Source: Parcubacteria group bacterium (lineage in GTDB: Bacteria > Patescibacteriota > Minisyncoccia > Phycocordibacterales > UBA2135). Taken from it: a stretch of 64,000 nucleotides of DNA. The position numbers and the translations under genes were made by a program. The stretch is from positions 38,395 to 102,394 of the forward strand of contig JACPBB010000003.1 of the NCBI GenBank assembly GCA_016180525.1. Reading direction: 5' to 3'. Each line of letters starts with the position of its first letter. Positions within the stretch are counted from its first letter, which is position 1. The notes under the pieces are model-generated. The model worked only from the letters and a program-made list of their open reading frames with translations, was not told where the DNA came from and made no database searches. Of this stretch, positions 1,456 to 51,359 are shown piece after piece.

Positions 1456-2606
1456 CCAAATGTAAACGCAAAGGCCTCAATGTTCGGATCAAGAAAGCGG
1501 ATAATAAGCACGTGCTCTCCGTATGCTCCCCGTAGGTCTACCAGATTATATAAGTCATGCTTATTAAACGTCACAAACCCGTCAACCACTTGCGCGCCTT
1601 CTCCGTTCGTCCCTATCGATTTTCCATCAAGCAATATCTGCGCGCGTACATTTTCCCCATCTGTCCCGCCGGCAACAAGATTAACCTTGTCCGCAGAAAA
1701 CGCAATAATAATCGCACCCTCTTCAGCTGAGGAGGCGGCGTATTCACTTTTTATATTCCAGATACCACTTAACGCAAAGGTGTTTAAATTTATTTTTTGA
1801 GGAGCAATAAAGACACAGTCAGTATCAAAACAATCATTTGAGGGCAAGTTTGCAAGAAACTGAATGCGACTAGACCCGAGATATGTTTCCGGACTTCTTA
1901 CCTTACTGAAATCAGTATCACCTCCAAGTTTAGAAGCAGTACCTTCAAGCACAACTTCCGTACCTTCGTTTAAAATCTTGTTACGCTCGTTCAGCAATGC
2001 AACAATTTTTTCTTCTGTTTCCTCATATGCCCCCTCACCGATATGGTCATATACGATAAACCCATCTATATCAATGAGATATTTTCTCGGCCAATATCTA
2101 TTTTTATACGCATTCCATGTTGAGTAATCATTATCAAGAATAACAGGGTACTGTATGCCAAACTTTTCCGTGGCCCGCTTTACATTGTCATAATTTTTTT
2201 CAAAATCAAACTCCGGTGTGTGAACTCCTAAGATCAAGAGACCCTTATCGGCGTATGCTTTATGCCACGCGTTAAGATATGGTGTTGTTCTCTGACAGTT
2301 AATGCACGAGTATGTCCAAAAATCAACAAGAATAATTTTTTTGCCAACGAACTCGGAAACAGCAATCCTGTCAGTATTGATAAATCCGTCCGGAGTTGAA
2401 ATTTCTTTTGCCGATTCATATTTTTTTGATTTCTCTGCAACGCGCGCCTTCGCAGCTACGTCCTCGGCTTCTAAAACAATTGTGCTGTCCTCGGAGACAG
2501 ATGAGAAACTCACAGACCTCGCTTTCCGTGATTCAAGATATACAATGAAGCCAATAATAAATATAAGTGCCACTGCAAGTAATATAATTCTTTTTTTATC
2601 TCGCAT
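1452..2606 (-). CDS. Membrane-anchored thioredoxin-fold thiol:disulfide oxidoreductase (TlpA/ResA-like) with extra C-terminal beta-rich domain
   Basis: N-terminal TM helix; redoxin motif 'FWTYSCINCQRTTPYL' (W-x-x-C-x-x-C); lies adjacent to ccdA. Confidence 0.6.
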   Translation of the reverse strand: MRDKKRIILLAVALIFIIGFIVYLESRKARSVSFSSVSEDSTIVLEAEDVAAKARVAEKSKKYESAKEISTPDGFINTDRIAVSEFVGKKIILVDFWTYSCINCQRTTPYLNAWHKAYADKGLLILGVHTPEFDFEKNYDNVKRATEKFGIQYPVILDNDYSTWNAYKNRYWPRKYLIDIDGFIVYDHIGEGAYEETEEKIVALLNERNKILNEGTEVVLEGTASKLGGDTDFSKVRSPETYLGSSRIQFLANLPSNDCFDTDCVFIAPQKINLNTFALSGIWNIKSEYAASSAEEGAIIIAFSADKVNLVAGGTDGENVRAQILLDGKSIGTNGEGAQVVDGFVTFNKHDLYNLVDLRGAYGEHVLIIRFLDPNIEAFAFTFG

Positions 2607-2623
2607 AATTTATTTTGGAGTGG

Positions 2624-3334
2624 TTATTTAAGAAGAAAACGATTAAGAAGCTCAAAATTTGCAATGAGATTTAAGCTTTGAGTAAAAACAAGAACGCCGA
2701 GAACAGTGAGTATTATTCCAAACACAATATTTACATAATGAAGTATGGAAGCGTATCTTTGAATAACAGCATCGGCTTGTGACGCAAACGCCCCTACGAC
2801 AAGAAACGGAAGGCCTAGCCCGAGAGAGTACGAAAACAACAGTCCGAAAGCAGACCCCGGCTCTGATGCCGCGAGTCCCAAAATCGCGCCGAGCGCCGCG
2901 CCCACGCACGGAGTCCATCCGGCCGCAAACGCCGCGCCAAAGACAAATGAGGTCACAAGACGTGATTTAAATCTGTGTCTTACAAGAATTTTATGTTCCC
3001 GTTCTAAAAATGGAATCTTAATAAGATGGGTGAGATATAATCCAAAAAATATGATTATTATTCCTCCGACACGCGCAAGCCATGTCTGTACTTCATATGC
3101 GACAGATTTAAGAATGCTGTTCAAAAGTACTCCGAGAAGCGCGAAAACTGCGGAAAATCCAATGACAAAAAACAAACTATTTACAAAAATCGCCATACGC
3201 CCTCTCGTTTCCGGTCTGTTAAGCGATGCCCCCGAAAGGTACGCTAAAAAACCCGGAATAATGGGCAGAACACACGGAGAAAGAAATGATATGAGTCCGG
3301 CAACAAACGCGATGCTAAGTGTTACAGTTTCCAT
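2624..3334 (-). CDS. ccdA: Cytochrome c-type biogenesis / disulfide-transfer membrane protein CcdA (DsbD family)
   Basis: Polytopic membrane protein with the hallmark 'LSPCVLPIIPGFLAYLSG' and a second Cys in 'GWTPCVGAALGAIL'. It pairs with the adjacent thioredoxin-like gene. Confidence 0.7.
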   Translation of the reverse strand: METVTLSIAFVAGLISFLSPCVLPIIPGFLAYLSGASLNRPETRGRMAIFVNSLFFVIGFSAVFALLGVLLNSILKSVAYEVQTWLARVGGIIIIFFGLYLTHLIKIPFLEREHKILVRHRFKSRLVTSFVFGAAFAAGWTPCVGAALGAILGLAASEPGSAFGLLFSYSLGLGLPFLVVGAFASQADAVIQRYASILHYVNIVFGIILTVLGVLVFTQSLNLIANFELLNRFLLK

Positions 3335-4000: not shown

Positions 4001-4159
4001 TGTAGCCCGGTATGTGTTGTATGTTATTGGTTTCGAGAAAGTCTCGAGGGAACTTTATCTCGTCTTAAAATATCGCACGGATGAGAAAATAATTCCGACA
4101 TCACAAATAAAACGTACGCTGAAGGAAAGAATCCCCGATTGCTCGAGGATTTTGTGCTG

Positions 4160-5071
4160 TTACACAATTTTACTGGAATCAGAAAAAGTCATTTTTAGCT
4201 CGTGTGAATCTCCTTTTTCAAGGAGGCTTGCAATGACTGTATATAAATCATGAGTGGAGCCGCCACGCCATTCCCACAGTACTTCAGAGCGTTTTAAAAC
4301 CCCCACGGGGTACGGATAGAGCGAGAACTCAATCGTCATCGGTCTAAAATCGGATCTAAATGACGCAAGCTGGTCCCCCAAAAGCCGGAGCGATTCCGGT
4401 GCCCAATCAGGAGCTCTTGAACCAAACCGGCGCAAAAACACGTGAAGTTCTGATGTTTTCTCGTCTACATCCCTTGGAGTTCCATATCCTTTAAAGTACG
4501 AGACCAGATATCGCGCGTTATCCAAAAGCACAATATTGCCGGCGAGAAGTGAGTCCTTAAGGGGAAGTGCTTCGTTCACAAGCGTGTGATAATTTTCGTT
4601 GTGTTTATTACAAAACCTAAGAACAGTATCAATACTATCTACATCATACGCAACCGGCAGTTTGGGGGTTTCTTTAAGCGGATCCTCTTCGGTAAAATTG
4701 CGCAAAGAAATTCTTCCATGGCGAGCAAAAAACACCGTCAACTCTTCAACAGAAAGTTCGTTGCGTAACCAGAACCTAAAATCAGCACAATTAAAGCCCG
4801 CATGCGCTAACTCTTGAAGTCGTAGATGCTTGAGCGGAAGCATTCGCTCCAGCGAATAATTTGAAGATTTTCTAAGTAATAACCTTGCAAGCCAGCTCCC
4901 AATAATAGCGTGTCCGTCAGCGACACGAATAATCCGCGTGGCGCTTTTGAAGTGTTTATTGATGAAACGGCCAAACGCCCTTCGCTGATTTCTTGTTTGC
5001 TTCATGAAAATCCCTCTCCTAAACAAAGGACAACTAACTATATAAATAACATATAAATATAAACTTGTCAA
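4160..5071 (-). CDS. Hypothetical protein
   Basis: 303-aa ORF; the more likely start is the internal Met (MKQTRNQ..., about 5005); no recognised motif. Confidence 0.3.
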   Translation of the reverse strand: MTSLYLYVIYIVSCPLFRRGIFMKQTRNQRRAFGRFINKHFKSATRIIRVADGHAIIGSWLARLLLRKSSNYSLERMLPLKHLRLQELAHAGFNCADFRFWLRNELSVEELTVFFARHGRISLRNFTEEDPLKETPKLPVAYDVDSIDTVLRFCNKHNENYHTLVNEALPLKDSLLAGNIVLLDNARYLVSYFKGYGTPRDVDEKTSELHVFLRRFGSRAPDWAPESLRLLGDQLASFRSDFRPMTIEFSLYPYPVGVLKRSEVLWEWRGGSTHDLYTVIASLLEKGDSHELKMTFSDSSKIV

Positions 5072-7520: not shown

Positions 7521-10058
7521 TTATGTTTTTAATCGCAGTGAATTTAAGACAACGCTTAGACTTGAAAATGCCATTGCCGCCGCGGCAAAAATAGGATTGA
7601 GCAAAATGCCAAAAAACGGATATAAAACGCCGGCGGCAACGGGAATAAACGCGATATTATAAAAGAATGCCCAAAACAAATTTTGCTTGATTATCCTCAT
7701 CGTCTTTTTTGAAAGTGCAATCACTTCGGGGATAAGCGTCAAGTCCCCCCTCATTAAGGTAATGCTTGCCGATTCCATCGCGATATCCGTCCCCTCACTC
7801 ATGGCGATCCCTATATGTGCTTGAGCAAGCGCGGGAGCGTCGTTGATTCCATCTCCGACCATCGCAACAATTTTACCAAGTGTTTGAAGTTCACGAACTT
7901 TTTCAGATTTTTTATGAGGCGCCACTTCGCTCATCACATTTTCTATGCCCACCTGTTTCGCAATTGCCTCAGCCGTTCTTTTATTATCTCCTGTGATCAT
8001 CCACACATCTATACCACTTTTTTTCAAAGCTTGTACTGCTTTAATTGACTCACCCTTCAACACATCGGCAACCGCAAGCGCGCCCTTGATGTGTTTATCA
8101 ACGACGAGAATCATTGCTGTCTTACCTTCTTTTTCAAGAGCCGTGATTTTGTCCTCATACAAAGAAATATCAAGTCCAATTTCTTGAATCAATATCCTGT
8201 TGCCCAGATATGCCTCAACTTTTTGAGATCCGACTTTTAAAAATCCCCGTAGACCCTGCCCTGAAATCGCCTTGAAATCACCGAGCGCATACAAGTCAAT
8301 TTTTTCTTTTTTTGCTTCTTCGATTATCGCAGTGTCAAGCGGATGTGATGACCTTTGGTTCAAACTTGCGGCATACTGCAATATCGCCTTTGCAAGCGGA
8401 TGTTCGGACCGCTGTTCCAAGGAAGCCGCGACGTGAAGCACTTCTTCTTTTTTTGTGTTATTAAAAGCAATAATATCAGTCAGTTGCGGTTTCCCTTGAG
8501 TGAGAGTTCCCGTTTTGTCCAAAATAACCGCGTTGATTTTACCCGCGATTTCAAGCGAGGCAGCATCTTTGATTAAAATTCCTTTTGATGCCGCGCTACC
8601 AGAGGAAACCATAATTGCCATTGGCGTCGCAAGGCCCAATGCGCATGGGCACGCGATGATAAGCACTGCTACAAGATTTATTAAAGCGAAATTAAAAGCA
8701 GGAGCGGGTCCAAAAAAGTACCACACGATAAAAGTAAGCACGGCCACTATCCCCACCATGGGAACAAAATAAGAAGAAACGAGGTCCGCTAAACGCTGAA
8801 TAGGTGCCTTTGATCCCTGCGCCTCCTCAACCATTTTTATTATTTGAGAGAGAACAGTGTCTTTTCCAATCCTCGTGGCTTGAAAAGTAAAAGTGCCAAA
8901 TTTATTTATCGTACTGCCGATAACAAGAGCGCCAACACTTTTATGCACGGGCATTGACTCTCCTGTTACCATTGATTCGTCAATTTCAGAGTCACCTTCA
9001 ATAATTTTTCCGTCAACGGGAATTTTCTCTCCCGGCCTCACGATTATTGCATCCCCAACCACAACATCAATAATAGGTATTTCAGTTTCTTTTTTACCTC
9101 GTATAACTATTGCCGTTTTTGGCTGAAGACCCATTAATTTTTTAATTGCTTCAGACGCTCTCCCCTTCATTAAAAGTTCAAAATATTTTCCTAGAAGTAT
9201 GAGCATGATAATTATCGCCGATGTGTCAAAATATATTTTTGGCTCAACTCCTCCTTGAGTGAAAAAATCTGGAAAAAGCATAACTGCGACACTATAGAAA
9301 TATGCCGCCAAAGTGCCAACGGCAATCAGTGTGTTCATGTCTGCAGTGCGATACTTTATGAGTAGTTTCAATCCGCTGTAAAACTGAAGTCCAACCCAAA
9401 ACTGAACAGGTGTGGTTAAGACAAAAAGTATCCAGTAATTGCTTAGAAATTCTGGCACAAATGTAAACCATTCAGGAAAACTGCCGAAAAATATAAAAAC
9501 CGAAAGAATGCCGCCGACAATGAGTTTGCGTCGCAAGGTTTTTGTCTGTTTTTCTCTTTCAATTTTCTCCTTATCCAACATTTCTTTTGCTTCTCCCTCC
9601 TCTTCAATTGGTTTATACCCAGCATCTGTAATAACTTCAAAAATCTTACTGATCTCAAGTTTTTGCGGATTAAAAACGACTTTTGCTCTTTGGTTTGAAA
9701 AATCCAGATCAGTGTTTTGTATACCCGGCAACTTCTTTAAAGCATTTTCAACAACCATCGCACAGTGTGGCGAGTCCATTCCTAAAATTTTCACTGATAT
9801 TGTTTGAAGACCCTTGCGAGAAGTTATTTTTTCTTTGGCAACCGGAGTAGGTATGTCCAGCTTATAGCCGACAGACTCAACTGCTTTTGCAAGGTTTGAT
9901 TCAGAAGCAACTCCTTCGTCAAACTCAACAAGCGCCGATTCTGACGCAAAATTAACCGCAGCAGAGTGTACACCCGCTGTTTTTAAAAGCACGCGTTCAA
10001 TGCTACCAGCGCATGAAGCACAGTGCATGCCTTTAATTTTAAAAGTTTTTTTAACCAT
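7521..10058 (-). CDS. copA: Copper-translocating P1B-type ATPase with two N-terminal heavy-metal-associated domains
   Basis: HMA motifs '[12 protein letters not shown]' and '[12 protein letters not shown]'; membrane 'CPC' motif '[13 protein letters not shown]'; phosphorylation site 'DKTGTLT'; hinge '[10 protein letters not shown]'. Confidence 0.9.
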
Positions 10059-10060
10059 GC

Positions 10061-10315
10061 TTACGCTTTTAGAAGTGTGTTATATAGCCACGCAAATACG
10101 TATACAGTTACATACGCAAGAATAATAACTTCAATAAATCCGTATATCACTTCCGGAAAACTTACCGCGCCTTCAACATTTAGCAAATGTGTCATCCAGC
10201 TGAAAAGCGTTGCCGCTGTTTTGGGCATTAAGGCGACAATAGCCGCACAAACAACATACCAAATGCCTGCGAGTACCGCTCCGGCTAAAGCAAATTTATG
10301 TGTATTAAGTTCCAT
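10061..10315 (-). CDS. Small hydrophobic membrane protein (84 aa), hypothetical
   Basis: Two predicted TM helices; lies immediately upstream of and adjacent to copA on the same strand. Confidence 0.35.
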
Positions 10316-10492
10316 ATTTTTAAACTTTTAATTTATACTTGGATATTCGACCTTTATATATCATTATACTCCATTATACCTCGCAGCTACCGCCCTGCGA
10401 CCCGTAGTTCCTCAACTTTCTAGCGCAAATACGAAAAACATAAGAAATGCAAAGATAGGAAGTACAACATATTCTTGTTACATGGCAATAAT

Positions 10493-10560
10493 TATTTCGG
10501 CTAGCGAGGAACGAAATGAAAATTGGTATTTTCATTTCGTCCGAGCGAAGACGAAATATA
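10493..10560. repeat. Imperfect long hairpin element, copy 1 of a 2-copy family (conserved flanks, variable apical stem)
   Basis: tatttcggctagcgagga-[acgaaatgaaaa ttggta ttttcatttcgt]-ccgagcgaagacgaaata. It is the reverse-complement counterpart of 39775..39839. Confidence 0.6.
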
Positions 10561-10589
10561 GGTTCCGCGGAGCAGTCCCCGCGAAACCC

Positions 10590-11438
10590 TTATTTTTTTG
10601 CCCGATACGCAAAAAAGGCAAAAATTCCGATAATAATAATTCCCCAGACTAATTCAGGAACAGTAGACAAGGCAGAAAATGCTTTTTGTGACCAGAGATT
10701 AAGAGATTTTCCGATATCTGCCTGTAACGATGGCGACCAAAATGCGTTTTCGGTAAATGCGAGTGTAAGAAGGACAATTCCCATAATAAGAAACACCACT
10801 TCAGCGAGCATATTTGTTGAGTGAATAAACATTATCTTAGAGCCAATTTTGATTTCTAATAATCTCCCCTTAATGAACGTGGAATTCTCAATTTGAAGCC
10901 GATCATAAAAATACGCGGCGATAAAAAGTGGGAATGTCATCCCAAACACATAGGCAAACGTTACAATAATAGCTTTCCAAAATGCGGCAGATACAACTGC
11001 AAGCGCCATGGCACCCGCTAACACCGGCGCACAGCATGAAGTCGCCGCTCCCGAAAACATACCGAGAAAAAATACCGATTTTGAATTCTGCATTCCCGCT
11101 GTTTTTAAGACACGCTTAGGCATTGGAACAAGTGACAATCCCTTGCCGCTTATTGAAAGCACGGAAAGCGTGAGCATGAATATGCCGCCCACAATATACA
11201 TTTCTTTGTGAAAATCGCGGAATATTTCGGCAAGCCATGCGGCGCCAAGACCAATCGGTACCAAAATTGCCGCAATGCCCGCAAAAAAGACCAGGGTCAT
11301 TTTCAGTATATGTTTCTTTTCACGAAACGCAGAGGCAAGGTAGGCTGGCAAAAGCACGGTAATACAGCATGGCGCAAACAAGGCAACCATACCCGCAAGA
11401 AACGCGGCAATAATTGACGCGGAAAAAATAATGTCCAT
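10590..11438 (-). CDS. DsbD/CcdA-like (DsbD_2 family) polytopic membrane protein
   Basis: Cys pairs inside TM segments, 'ALFAPCCITVLLP' and 'AATSCCAPVLAGA'; 8-9 TM helices. Confidence 0.5.
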   Translation of the reverse strand: MDIIFSASIIAAFLAGMVALFAPCCITVLLPAYLASAFREKKHILKMTLVFFAGIAAILVPIGLGAAWLAEIFRDFHKEMYIVGGIFMLTLSVLSISGKGLSLVPMPKRVLKTAGMQNSKSVFFLGMFSGAATSCCAPVLAGAMALAVVSAAFWKAIIVTFAYVFGMTFPLFIAAYFYDRLQIENSTFIKGRLLEIKIGSKIMFIHSTNMLAEVVFLIMGIVLLTLAFTENAFWSPSLQADIGKSLNLWSQKAFSALSTVPELVWGIIIIGIFAFFAYRAKK

Positions 11439-26639: not shown

Positions 26640-27911
26640 ATGACACCATCCGGCTTCTCTCGGATAGTGCGGCCCAACGGGCTCACTATCCTTATCCAGA
26701 AAAAAGAACACGGGACGGTAAGTTTTGGCATTGGCGTACGTTTTGGCTCCGCAAATCATGGAGCAAGCCACCTTATTGAGCATGTGCTCTTTACCGGCAC
26801 AAAAACACGAACTGAGGAACAAATACGACAAGAGGCAACGCGCTGGGGAGGGTACCATGACGCATACGTTGGTTTCTTCTCAACTTTTTTTGTTACAAAA
26901 AATCTTGTGGTTCGTGGTTATGAACCTTTAGAAATTCTCTGTGACATGATTGCCAATCCGTCATTTTTACCGGAAAAAATAGAAAATCAGCGGAATGTAA
27001 CACTTGAAGAACATGAAAAGCGCTCCAGTGAGCCAGAAACAATGCTTATGAATAGAATTTATAGGACGCTCTATTGTGATACTCCCCTTGAGTGTGCTGT
27101 TGTGGATGACACCGGGGTGTTAAATAAAATAACACGCCAAGAACTTGTCAAGCTCTATCAAAAACACTACATCCCCTCCCAGCTAATTGTCGTGGGTGTC
27201 GGTCCAATAGATGTCGACCGTGTTGTTGAAATTGTTGACACACACTTCCCCCAAAAGAGGAAACAGCTTCCGGAAACGCTTGAGGTTTCTCCTGAGGTTC
27301 TTGAGCCTCCATCGGGAAACATCATCATTCCTAAGAGTGGGGTAGGTCAGGCACACATGATGGTGGGGTTTAAAACAGTCTCCCGTACGCATCCTGATTT
27401 TTATCCGTTGCGAGTATTTTCAATGATTATCGGAGAAAGTACTAATTCTCGCCTGTTTAGAGCAACTCGTGGAATGGTCGGCCTCGTATATAATATAACT
27501 TCACATTTTGATACGGTGCGGTCCTCAAGACAAAGTGTTCTCCGAGCAGATTGTACCGCCTATCACGGCACTCTTCGCATCTATTCATTCTTTAAACAAC
27601 GGAAGCTGAGACGTGTTGAGAATACCATAAAGGAGGAGCTCAGAAAGCTTACGGAATCTTTAGTTCCTCCAGAAGAGTTGAAAATCAATCAAGAAGGAGT
27701 AATTGGTAAACACGAGCTTGGAATGCAAGGAACTCATCAAGAAATGCGTATGTTATTTGCGGCTGAAATAAATAAGAGTACAGAAGAATTTTTCAATTTT
27801 AAAGAAAAAATACGCGCGGTAACTGCTGAAGATGTGCGGAGGGTTGCGCAAACATATTGTGGCCCAAATCAGGGAGTTTGGGTTACGCTCAAGCCAAAAG
27901 CTCATAATTAA
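26640..27911 (+). CDS. M16 (pitrilysin/insulinase) family zinc peptidase
   Basis: Inverted zinc-binding motif 'HGASHLIEHVLFTGT' (H-x-x-E-H) and downstream Glu; 423 aa. Confidence 0.75.
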   Translation: MTPSGFSRIVRPNGLTILIQKKEHGTVSFGIGVRFGSANHGASHLIEHVLFTGTKTRTEEQIRQEATRWGGYHDAYVGFFSTFFVTKNLVVRGYEPLEILCDMIANPSFLPEKIENQRNVTLEEHEKRSSEPETMLMNRIYRTLYCDTPLECAVVDDTGVLNKITRQELVKLYQKHYIPSQLIVVGVGPIDVDRVVEIVDTHFPQKRKQLPETLEVSPEVLEPPSGNIIIPKSGVGQAHMMVGFKTVSRTHPDFYPLRVFSMIIGESTNSRLFRATRGMVGLVYNITSHFDTVRSSRQSVLRADCTAYHGTLRIYSFFKQRKLRRVENTIKEELRKLTESLVPPEELKINQEGVIGKHELGMQGTHQEMRMLFAAEINKSTEEFFNFKEKIRAVTAEDVRRVAQTYCGPNQGVWVTLKPKAHN

Positions 27912-38669: not shown

Positions 38670-39686
38670 TTAATATTTTTTAATATCTTCTATGAGCGCG
38701 GTCACGTCATCTTCAGTCGTATCAAATGAGGCCATGAAACGGCACAAGCCCTTACTGTCCCAATCATAGAAAAACCATTTTCCATGCAACGCACGTAGCT
38801 TATATTCGCCAAAACGAACAAAAACAGAATTCGCCTCTACCGGATATTCGGGAACATATCCAGTCTCTTCGCGCAACGTGCGAGCAAGAAGCGCAGCCAT
38901 TTCATTTGCATGAAGCGCGTTCTTTCTCCACAACTCATTGGAGAGCAGGGCATCAAACTGTGCCGCAATGAATCGTGTTTTTGAAACGGTCTGCATCCCC
39001 TGTTTCTGAATATATTTAAATTTTTCCGCGAGTTCATGTTCAAAAAATATCACCGATTCGGCAAGCATCGCACCATTTTTTGTTCCACCGAAAGAAAGTA
39101 CGTCAACGCCTGAATCTCTTGCAAGTGATAATTTTTCGTTTAAACTGACAACCGCGTTTGCAAAACGAGCCCCATCAATGTGGAAAAGCATTTTATGTTT
39201 GTGCGCGAAATCAGCAAGCGCGCATAATTCTTTACGAGTATAAACCGTTTCAAATTCAGTCGGTTGCGCGACAGAAATAACTTTTGGCTGCGGATGATGT
39301 TTGTCGCCAAAACCGCAGACATGCGGCTCAATGAGCGGAACAGTTAATTTTCCGTTTTCACCATCAATTTGAATCATGGTACAACCGGTAAACTTGCTCG
39401 GGGCACCGCATTCATCCACGTGTAAATGCGAGGTGCGCGCGCAGATAATAGAGTTCCATGATTGTGTACATGCTGATAGCGCAAGCACATTTGCGGCGGT
39501 TCCGGTAGTTACAAAAAAGGTTTCTGCAGTAAGACCAAAATTATCTTTAAACTTCCGCCACACAGACTCGGTATATGGGTCATCACCGTATGCTGGAGTA
39601 TGACCACAGTCTGCTTTTATAATCGCCTCTAAAACTGCAGGATGAATGCCGGAGTTATTATCGCTTCCGAATCCTCGCTCTTGCAT
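38670..39686 (-). CDS. ltaE: Low-specificity L-threonine aldolase (PLP-dependent, beta-eliminating lyase fold)
   Basis: N-terminus 'FGSDNNSGIHPAVLEAI' and the PLP-lysine region 'SFGGTKNGAM' match the threonine aldolase family; 338 aa. Confidence 0.75.
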   Translation of the reverse strand: MQERGFGSDNNSGIHPAVLEAIIKADCGHTPAYGDDPYTESVWRKFKDNFGLTAETFFVTTGTAANVLALSACTQSWNSIICARTSHLHVDECGAPSKFTGCTMIQIDGENGKLTVPLIEPHVCGFGDKHHPQPKVISVAQPTEFETVYTRKELCALADFAHKHKMLFHIDGARFANAVVSLNEKLSLARDSGVDVLSFGGTKNGAMLAESVIFFEHELAEKFKYIQKQGMQTVSKTRFIAAQFDALLSNELWRKNALHANEMAALLARTLREETGYVPEYPVEANSVFVRFGEYKLRALHGKWFFYDWDSKGLCRFMASFDTTEDDVTALIEDIKKY

Positions 39687-39774
39687 TTGTTATATTCCAC
39701 AATGACAATTCTATTAGCATTTCTAGCATACAGAAATAAGTTGTCAAAATTCTTTTTATATATATGATTTTCAT

Positions 39775-39839
39775 ATATTTCGTCTTCGCTCGGACGAAGT
39801 GAGCATACGTGCTCACTTCGCTCCTCGCTAGCCGAAATA
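39775..39839. repeat. Imperfect long hairpin element, copy 2 (reverse orientation) of the 10493..10560 family
   Basis: rc = tatttcggctagcgagga-[gcgaagtgagca cgta tgctcacttcgt]-ccgagcgaagacgaaata. The flanks are identical to copy 1 and the apical stem differs with compensating changes. Confidence 0.6.
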
Positions 39840-39842
39840 AAA

Positions 39843-39880
39843 CAACCCCTCACTCTTTTAGAGCAAGGGGTTATTTTACA
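39843..39880 (-). terminator. Rho-independent terminator candidate downstream of the small ORF 39898..40104
   Basis: aacccct-TGCTCTAAAAGAGTGA-ggggtt followed on the minus strand by gttttatttcgg. Confidence 0.4.
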
Positions 39881-39897: not shown

Positions 39898-40104
39898 TTA
39901 TTCTGCCACTGCTTCATCTGCCGCTCCGTTATCCATCGCTCCATCATCCGCTGCCATTCCTGCATCTCCCGCTACTGCCGCTCCCTGCTCTACGGTTGCA
40001 TCAGCCGGAACGACATCTGCCGTGCCGTTTCCTTTCAAGAAATACCATCCTCCCGCAATAACAACCACCGCGACGACAACCCAGATAAGTATTTTGTTGT
40101 CCAT
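39898..40104 (-). CDS. Small membrane-anchored protein with Ala/Asp-rich tail, hypothetical
   Basis: 68 aa, N-terminal TM then a low-complexity acidic tail; there is an inverse-strand ORF artefact opposite. Confidence 0.3.
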   Translation of the reverse strand: MDNKILIWVVVAVVVIAGGWYFLKGNGTADVVPADATVEQGAAVAGDAGMAADDGAMDNGAADEAVAE

Positions 40105-40931: not shown

Positions 40932-40963
40932 ATCGTCTACGAGAGTTCCGTTATCCCCTTAAC

Positions 40964-40999
40964 AACATTCCAATCCGCCAGCTGGCGGATTGGAATGTT
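40964..40999. repeat. Perfect 18-bp palindrome, member 1 of the 'AACATTCCAA' palindromic element family
   Basis: aacattccaatccgccag|ctggcggattggaatgtt; it shares its outer arms and flanks (cctta... / ...gttgtatg) with 44760..44789. Confidence 0.6.
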
Positions 41000-41030
41000 G
41001 TATGGTTAAAAAATCGCTTTTCCGTCGTAA

Positions 41031-44750: not shown

Positions 44751-44759
44751 CCTTACTGA

Positions 44760-44789
44760 CATTCCAACATTCTCAAGAATGTTGGAATG
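44760..44789. repeat. Palindromic element, member 2 of the 'AACATTCCAA' family
   Basis: cattccaacattct-ca-agaatgttggaatg (14-bp perfect stem). Confidence 0.6.
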
Positions 44790-44792
44790 TTG

Positions 44793-45128
44793 TTATGTTA
44801 TTTTTCCTCTTTGGAAAAAATTTATGAGGGTTTTATTGGCAAATTTTTTAACATCCTCCGGGGGAGGTTCATAATAAGAAACTTCTACTCTTCCATTTCT
44901 AAAATAAACATAGCCTTGCAATAATATATCACTGAGCTCAATGCCCATTGCGTGGCGTACAAGCGCATGTCCTTCGTGAGAAAGATATAACTTAAAATTT
45001 TTTGTTCCTACAAGCGTAATATCATTTCCGTTTGAAAATCTTTCTTGAACGATTTTCCTGGAAGACCCGACCCCGAATTTAATTTCAAATTCCGGAACAT
45101 ATTCTTTGCTTTCAAAATTTTTTTCCAT
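44793..45128 (-). CDS. Hypothetical protein
   Basis: 111 aa, no motif, low GC. Confidence 0.3.
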   Translation of the reverse strand: MEKNFESKEYVPEFEIKFGVGSSRKIVQERFSNGNDITLVGTKNFKLYLSHEGHALVRHAMGIELSDILLQGYVYFRNGRVEVSYYEPPPEDVKKFANKTLINFFQRGKIT

Positions 45129-49957: not shown

Positions 49958-49980
49958 GAAAAATTATTATTTGTTAAAAA

Positions 49981-50010
49981 CATTCCAACATTCTATAGAA
50001 TATTGGAATG
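49981..50010. repeat. Palindromic element, member 3 of the 'AACATTCCAA' family; flanked by A5/T6 runs (bidirectional terminator-like)
   Basis: aaaaa-cattccaacattcta-t-agaatattggaatg-tttttt (one mismatch in the stem). Confidence 0.55.
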
Positions 50011-50055
50011 TTTTTTGCCAATTTGTTAAAGTTAACAATTTAGATTTTTTATACA

Positions 50056-50867: not shown

Positions 50868-51167
50868 TTAACTCTTTTTTCCTCTGCTTCCTTGCGTATA
50901 TTTTTTAAATATAGGGTCAGTTTCAAGGAGCTCTTCAACTTTAAGTCGTAATCCGAATGCGCGTGCAACATCCTGGGGACTCATGTTTCCATGACGAACC
51001 CGCTCAATTATTTTTATCAATTCTTCCGGTGTATATTTTTTTTGACTTTCCTCTACTACTACGCCTATATTGTTTATAACTTCATACAACGCGTCAAACG
51101 AAACCGCTTTCTCAACGGCTTCATCTTTTTCAATATCTGGACCCTCTATAAAATCCTCAAGTGACAT
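50868..51167 (-). CDS. Hypothetical small protein
   Basis: 99 aa; a possible HTH-like segment 'MSPQDVARAFGL'. Confidence 0.3.
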   Translation of the reverse strand: MSLEDFIEGPDIEKDEAVEKAVSFDALYEVINNIGVVVEESQKKYTPEELIKIIERVRHGNMSPQDVARAFGLRLKVEELLETDPIFKKYTQGSRGKKS

Positions 51168-51359
51168 ATAAAAGCACTTCGTCTTATATAAGCTCCTCGG
51201 CTCAGAAATGAAAAATCTGATGAATTTTTCATTTCTCTCACTCTACGTCGCTTATAAATAGAGAATACATTTAATTATCCTTAAAATACACCAAAAATCA
51301 AGGAATACTTATCGTATAGAAAATCCCCACATCTATGTATAAGATGCGGGGACAAAAAA

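Follow-up and report, generated by a model that had tools for sequence, protein, structure and literature searches.

Two intergenic hairpins in a Parcubacteria contig are copies of a previously undescribed structured repeat

Two hairpins that lie between genes of a Parcubacteria contig, in a 64-kb stretch of DNA (hereafter the window, meaning the whole stretch that was analysed), are true copies of a previously undescribed structured intergenic repeat, which we call HP1. Further copies occur in the genomes of relatives, where their stems covary strongly, and we consider it probable that HP1 represents a new dispersed modular hairpin repeat, similar in kind to REP/BIME or BOX elements, that occupies intergenic DNA in a clade of Parcubacteria (Paceibacteria). 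It would add a new family to the dispersed structured intergenic repeats, a general kind of element that is already known, in a group where we found none described.

Two copies in the window and their relatives

The two copies of HP1 in the window are the following, P1 denoting the outer stem:

10493-10559, plus strand: HP1 type 1, copy 1 (covariance-model match of 82.6 bits, E 1.6e-24); P1 is TATTTCG/CGAAATA, the conserved blocks are GGCTAGCGAGGA at 10499-10510 and TCCGAGCGAAGA at 10540-10551, and the variable apical stem-loop is at 10511-10539
about 39775-39841, minus strand: HP1 type 1, copy 2 (covariance-model match of 85.6 bits, E 1.7e-25); P1 and the conserved blocks are the same as in copy 1, and the apical stem is GCGAAGTGAGCA/TGCTCACTTCG

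A reading of the sequence alone, without database searches (hereafter the sequence-only reading), had picked out these loci by matching flanks of 18 and 20 nt. The match is confirmed, and the identity in fact spans 19 nt (TTATTTCGGCTAGCGAGGA) on the 5' side and 25 nt (TTCGTCCGAGCGAAGACGAAATATA) on the 3' side. Within the 64 kb, TATTTCGGCTAGCGAGGA occurs only at 10493-10510 (plus strand) and 39822-39839 (minus strand), and TCCGAGCGAAGACGAAATA only at 10540-10558 (plus strand) and 39776-39794 (minus strand), while 0.07 and 0.04 flank matches, respectively, are expected by chance with three mismatches tolerated. HP1 is the sole part that the two copies have in common: the DNA outside its ends does not align, in agreement with the earlier impression by eye, and the likeness stops at the hairpin ends, with no larger duplicated segment. 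The central 12-bp stem had been described as differing between copies with matching changes on both arms; the compensation is real, but it concerns three base pairs and not the whole stem. Two of these go from A-T to G-C and the third from A-T to C-G, with both partners replaced each time, and the copies also differ at one unpaired position. On either strand, both window copies fold much more stably than shuffled sequence, with z scores of -6.6 to -7.1 as RNA and of -6.3 to -7.1 as DNA.

Both copies are intergenic between same-strand genes, as had been stated, and all neighbours are on the minus strand. Those of copy 1 are a ccdA/DsbD-like gene (10590-11438), a DUF5676 gene (10061-10315) and copA (7521-10058), and those of copy 2 are a 68-aa ORF (39898-40104) and ltaE (38670-39686). 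With copy 1 on the plus and copy 2 on the minus strand, the two have opposite orientations relative to their neighbours. A weak covariance-model match at 26643-26707 of the window has no loop blocks and is taken as chance.

In a search covering one genome per species, exact matches to GGCTAGCGAGGA and TCCGAGCGAAGA were required in this order and 15-45 nt apart, and 113 further loci in 76 assemblies were recovered. The hosts are essentially all metagenome-assembled Parcubacteria/Patescibacteria, including the named groups Nomura-, Kaiser-, Taylor-, Yonath- and Zambryskibacteria; the off-group labels are one Bacteroidetes contig and several automated submissions as Saccharibacteria. The ccdA protein of the window itself carries the source name 'Parcubacteria group bacterium'. 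Each assembly holds one to five exact copies, the assemblies being incomplete. Viral contigs searched for the loops of type 1 and of the sister type 2 described below gave no match. With all 4227 Rfam families at gathering thresholds, the window yields only tRNAs and nine of the family loci yield nothing; permissive thresholds add noise-level matches only. In the literature, we found no description of dispersed structured repeats in candidate phyla radiation bacteria.

A covarying two-tier hairpin within a modular unit

HP1 is a two-tier hairpin of about 70 nt (range 65-80 nt). Read from the fold inward from P1, it presents a G.A mismatch, CU/AG, an A opposite GA, GC/GC, a tandem GA/GA, GGA/UCC and a bulged base, and then a freely covarying apical stem. 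The region between P1 and the apical stem is purine-rich and holds 24 fixed nucleotides in internal loops, an invariance that is partly built in since the loci were collected by exact match to both loop blocks. In the few non-exact copies retrieved with the covariance model, the core A-GC-GA-GG / CC-GA-GC-GAA persists and the outer loop can change; one of these (L099) has an A-U pair in place of the G.A mismatch.

Covariation was assessed on an alignment of 113 distinct copies, with the region between the stems outside the test because it was fixed by the search. P1 appears as TTTC/GAAA, TTGC/GCAA, TCGC/GCGA, TCAC/GTGA, TTGT/ACAA, TATT/AATA and other variants. Standard pairs occupy 93.5% of the cells of the structure; the corresponding share is 80.9% in column shuffles and 27-48% for slid partners. 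Double-sided changes are seen in 297 cells where 79 are expected, and none of 500 shuffles matches the observed pairing, double-change count or covariation score. P1 and the apical stem thus covary strongly by both the shuffle and the slid-partner controls. Selection on secondary structure, which the sequence-only reading had proposed from two copies, is borne out by this covariation, by the further copies and by the lack of a larger duplication, and the best reading is that the folded strand of the repeat is under selection.

Several features are strand-specific, and are suggestive of one particular strand being the folded one. The tandem G.A pairs lie in a CGAG/CGAG context, and the commonest apical loop is G[CTTG]C (26 copies), CAAG loops being very few. 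Apical stems contain 69 G.T against 22 A.C/C.A pairs, counts that are not phylogenetically independent, and in minimum-energy folds of the whole hairpin, wobble pairs number 87 for the top strand and 69 for the reverse strand. The top strand is on the G-rich strand in a ratio of 68:43, a weak bias. Both G.T and tandem G.A are tolerated in DNA hairpins too.

The unit extends beyond the limits first given to the element (10493-10560), with a second hairpin (HP2) after copy 1. The elements adjoining the two copies are:

about 10560-10599, plus strand: HP2 of copy 1, AGGTTCCGCGG..CCCCGCGAAACC then CTTATTTTTTT
39757-39778, minus strand: second hairpin after copy 2, ATATATGAAAATCATATAT, overlapping the 3' arm of P1
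39838-39870, minus strand: terminator-like hairpin of the upstream 68-aa ORF, CCCCTTGCTCTAAAAGAGTGAGGGG, whose T-tract TTGTTTTA enters the 5' arm of HP1

In HP2 of copy 1, the hairpin itself takes up 10560-10589 and a T-run comes after it. This module contains the ccdA stop codon (10590-10592) and, on the minus strand, scores as a terminator-like site for ccdA whose T-rich tail is the end of HP1. The second hairpin of copy 2 is unlike it in sequence, and one of the same type follows HP1 at locus L078. The hairpin at 39838-39870 was not flagged in a strict terminator scan. Across the family, HP2 begins inside the 3' arm of P1 or immediately behind it in nearly every copy, and about 70% of second hairpins are a module of the form AAAGGTTcAATACC-[GC hairpin]-GGAACCTTTAT. 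Some units include a third module containing GAGCGAAGCGAG, and head-to-tail tandem units are present at L016, L070, L072, L081 and L021. The ends of the unit are sharp in the same-genome pairs L038/L059 and L035/L066, running from TTTATT.. to ..CCTTTATT. TTTAT stands at both ends of composite units, yet also contributes to the HP2 stem. Being the two sides of a stem, the arms of P1 are necessarily inverted repeats, and a TTTAT within the structure is indistinguishable from a target-site duplication. A terminator-like hairpin lies at most 12 nt upstream of about 19% of copies and of 10% of control TTTAT sites, a two-fold enrichment over a control that was not restricted to intergenic DNA. A role as dedicated terminator was rejected, as divergent regions are not avoided; HP2 nonetheless can be terminator-like.

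A sister element with the same layout, type 2, is also present in the window:

51184-51260, minus strand: sister element type 2 (weak covariance-model match), with P1 TATAAGC/GCTTATA, loop blocks GACGTAGAGTGAGA and TGAGCCGAGGA, and apical stem GAAATGAAAAAT/ATTTTTCATTTC
about 51158-51183, minus strand: hairpin after the type 2 element, TATAAGACGAAGTGCTTTTATA

Its loops are likewise purine-rich (GA-rich) and differ from those of type 1, being GACGTAGAG(C/T)GAG ... (C/T)GAGCCGAGGA. Type 2 elements with a covarying P1 are also found at L015, L053 and L062, in genomes that hold type 1 as well. The apical stems of the window's type 2 element (51205-51240) and of type 1 copy 1 (10511-10539) are nearly equal, with different loop blocks, which hints at exchange or a shared constraint within the genome. 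At L053 (2120-2320), one element of each type is present, the two being inverted and about 45 nt apart, with a terminator-like hairpin in between and more hairpins on both outer sides.

Genomic setting, dispersal and long-term retention

HP1 copies are intergenic. Between co-directional genes, 28 are in sense and 29 in antisense orientation, and a further 12 lie between divergent and nine between convergent genes, about the background mix of intergenic types. Stem integrity is equal across sense, antisense and the other context classes. The 400 neighbour proteins fall into 343 clusters, among which we found no recurrent neighbour gene and no recurrent transposase. A cis-regulatory leader or regulon element was rejected on account of the random orientation and the lack of gene association.

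Copies resemble each other within genomes: apical identity is 0.83 within assemblies and 0.58 between them, and 63% of within-assembly pairs have the same P1 type, compared with 18% of between-assembly pairs. Read by eye, the apical sequence of L033 is like that of its genome-mate L027 and not that of its orthologue L023, with which it has a common downstream flank. As for gain or loss, the ccdA-copA loci of relatives (ccdA 72-79% identical) contain no HP1 copy, but they have extra genes and a different gene order. The closest ltaE relative is 63% identical, and no clean pre-insertion site was found among the relatives of either ccdA or ltaE. Logan contigs from the population of the window (L115, L116, L117, L119 and L121) end within or beside the element, the pattern expected when a repeat breaks short-read assembly. 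Taken together, orientation, context, within-genome similarity and gain or loss indicate a dispersed repeat that was amplified or homogenised within genomes, and this distribution suggests that HP1 is, or has been, mobile.

Some details of these loci may be recorded here. At L122, L123 and L124, a gene of 283-324 aa begins 5-16 nt after ccdA, sometimes with others, and is followed by the DUF5676 gene and copA; in the window (10061-11438) these intervening genes are absent, and the repeat occupies the ccdA-DUF5676 junction. In L099, two inverted copies (13-86 and 4108-4181) bracket a 4-kb block of sugar-modification-type genes, inside which we found no transposase.

Neither an autonomous mobile partner nor an empty site was found near the loci or in the ccdA and ltaE relatives. 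A motif scan of about 1.2 Mb (about 8 kb per locus) detected a single Y1_Tnp gene, in L108, and no cognate mobilising enzyme. The L108 gene, from a Kaiserbacteria genome, encodes a 236-aa IS200-like Y1 transposase (2270-3040; PF01797, 29.8 bits) and has on each side a perfect copy of the hairpin TGGCAAGGTAAGACCTTGCCAT, the two copies being inverted; this hairpin is absent from the other loci sampled. The arrangement is like that of a RAYT with its REPs but has no sequence relation to HP1, and it was rejected as a RAYT partner for HP1 because its flanking hairpins are unrelated.

HP1 followed by HP2 also stands in sense orientation in the 5' leader of tuf in five genomes (L014, L074, L076, L083 and L101), whose EF-Tu proteins are 88-95% identical and whose tuf DNA is about 80% identical. 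The leader sits downstream of a conserved TTGAC-17-TACTAT promoter in all five. All 24 loop nucleotides of HP1 are kept, P1 and the HP2 stem differ by compensated changes, and the spacer before the tuf start codon is not alignable. These copies resemble each other and not their genome-mates, which argues for vertical descent under purifying selection. A second orthologous pair, L013/L070, lies just after a gene stop codon, one as a single unit and the other as a tandem. HP1 can therefore stay in place for long periods with compensatory changes. A metagenome scan with EF-Tu gave 80 more distant tuf loci (66-80% identical), none with HP1. In the five genomes, a conserved 5' hairpin, ACGCACGC...GTGCGT, lies about 300 nt upstream of tuf, and the canonical HP1 of the tuf leaders is preceded by a shorter segment similar to it (GGCGTAGCGAcc ... 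AGCGAAG).

Alternative readings and comparison with known systems

Among the three options offered by the sequence-only reading, the best fit is a REP/MITE-like dispersed repeat. A small-RNA gene standing on its own is less likely, since the repeat has no promoter and faces either way, and the one-strand features tell against a symmetric cruciform. In such a dispersed repeat, the invariant loops would form the recognition surface for a conserved trans-acting protein. This protein would act on one folded strand, either RNA or single-stranded DNA, and its role might be to disperse the element or else to make use of it, for instance where mRNAs end beside terminators. The independence of orientation from transcription speaks against a purely RNA-level role, and the tuf leader for an RNA-level role at that locus, where long-term retention is more easily reconciled with a host function than with a repeat that is purely selfish.

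A reading that we hold to be rather unlikely, though it accounts for several of these observations, is that HP1 is mainly a host RNA module, i.e. a protein-binding or stabilising UTR structure by terminators whose copies reflect reuse and not selfish spread. The sense copies kept in the tuf leader of five genomes with in-place compensation in both HP1 and HP2, the position of L013/L070 directly after the stop codon, the RNA-typical motifs (tandem sheared-type G.A in CGAG/CGAG, G[CUUG]C loops and an excess of G.U) and the P1 arms that double as T-tract or A-tract of adjoining terminator-like hairpins would all suit such a module. However, antisense copies make up half of those between co-directional genes and are equally intact, and the reverse complement has pyrimidine loops that could not bind the same factor as RNA. 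Moreover, divergent promoter regions are not avoided, no gene family is associated, and the 80 further tuf loci lack the element.

The invariant purine-rich loops, the two co-resident loop types and the long retention at tuf are unusual, and in combination they point to a putative partner protein. One could speculate further, with more doubt still, that HP1 and its sister type are the docking site of a clade-specific conserved protein reading a tandem-G.A 'purine zipper'. They might then be a domesticated genome-wide signal, for example at transcript ends or in 5' leaders such as that of tuf (in processing, stability or termination control), or else serve as substrate for a new mobilisation enzyme that is specific for hairpins and not related to the Y1 transposases.

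It seems improbable to us that HP1 is instead a single-stranded-DNA signal, such as a recombination, nicking or priming site that a DNA enzyme would read on the exposed top strand, comparable to REP-RAYT, attC or plasmid single-strand origins. HP1 does fold well as DNA, its orientation is independent of transcription, and the architecture recalls a folded attC in its basal stem, its unpaired bases that are fixed, its extrahelical base and its variable tip. Its purine-rich motifs, of a type that forms very stable DNA mini-hairpins, include GCGAAGC, which is found in some apical tips as well as the third module, and the top strand is weakly biased to the G-rich strand as given above. Yet this bias is slight, attC core sites, cassette arrays, an integrase or a cognate Y1 transposase were not found nearby, and the RNA level is a simpler account of the conservation in the tuf leader. 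That HP1 and HP2 together make up an independent small-RNA gene, in which an intrinsic terminator comes after a structured 5' hairpin, is hardly credible: the plus strand of copy 1 does read HP1, GC hairpin, TTATTTTTTT with no plus-strand gene nearby, but there is no promoter-like site upstream of it, the similarity between copies starts exactly at the hairpin so that no promoter travels along, copy 2 has no T-run terminator, and the tuf copies lie inside a longer leader.

Coming back to the dispersed repeat that we favour, the closest known systems in behaviour are the REP/BIME elements of Enterobacteria and pseudomonads, which are mobilised by RAYT Y1 transposases. Like these, HP1 is a short imperfect palindrome, intergenic, multi-copy and in both orientations, often by terminators; its stems covary between lineages with few nucleotides fixed; and there are several types per genome, composite or tandem arrangements and within-genome likeness. 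Unlike REPs (20-40 nt with a 5' GTAG), HP1 is about twice as long and two-tiered, with its 24 fixed internal-loop nucleotides. As to the GTAG, type 1 has CTAG in the internal loop, and type 2 has GTAG (GACGTAGAG) internally, between P1 and the inner stem. Further differences are that no cognate RAYT flanked by inverted HP1 copies was found in the roughly 1.2 Mb covered (about 8 kb per locus), that HP1 modules are chained head-to-tail and not as the inverted Y/Z pairs of BIMEs, and that exact copies per assembly, in incomplete assemblies, are far fewer than for classical REPs. HP1 also resembles BOX of Streptococcus pneumoniae (boxA-boxB-boxC), Correia/NEMIS and the Rickettsia palindromic elements, which are modular non-coding intergenic hairpin repeats; their number of modules varies, and their host genomes are small or streamlined. 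However, it has no sequence relationship to any of them, it spans many species-level genomes and not one species, and no terminal-inverted-repeat or target-duplication signature is established for it.

At the level of structure, the lactis-plasmid RNA of Lactococcus plasmids (RF01742) has the same layout as HP1, with a long basal stem, a GAA-containing internal loop, two base pairs, a tandem GA/GA (CGAG/CGAG), an inner stem and then a 3' hairpin. This is a resemblance only: copy 1 scores 25.4 bits against a gathering score of 70, and copy 2 gives no match. For Enterococcus-1 (RF02973), the best sub-threshold score is 17.9 against 71.4 bits. Integron attC sites are recognised as one folded strand. 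They share with HP1 a basal stem, unpaired or extrahelical bases that are fixed, and a terminal stem-loop that varies, and in both the structure is kept more than the sequence. In contrast to attC, HP1 has no RYYYAAC/GTTRRRY core sites, integrase or one-orientation cassette arrays; its loop is invariant, its P1 is TTATTTCG/CGAAATAA-like and freely covarying, and its copies are solitary or form ORF-less tandems in either orientation.

The TIGR 'stem arrays' of candidate phyla radiation bacteria consist of regular hairpin units with internal loops (PMC12045711). Their loops carry variable dual spacers between short box C/D motifs, and the arrays stand beside a Nop-domain tas gene (PMC12045711). 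A TIGR stem array was rejected for HP1, whose loops are invariant, whose copies are mostly solitary, and which has neither tas nor any other recurrent neighbour.

Candidate phyla radiation genomes are very small and have little room for non-coding DNA. With more than 110 natural variants of one fold, HP1 is a ready case for finding the protein that reads it, and the family allows asking whether such elements are selfish DNA, modules of mRNA ends and leaders, or both. In practical terms, the repeat breaks short-read assemblies, and it can serve as a clade marker.

Finally, the window contains a separate family of palindromes built on ACATTCCAA..TTGGAATGT, at 40962-41001, 44759-44795 and 49969-50022. 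They are probably terminator-like or belong to another repeat family, and the one at 40962-41001 is a perfect 20+20-nt palindrome.
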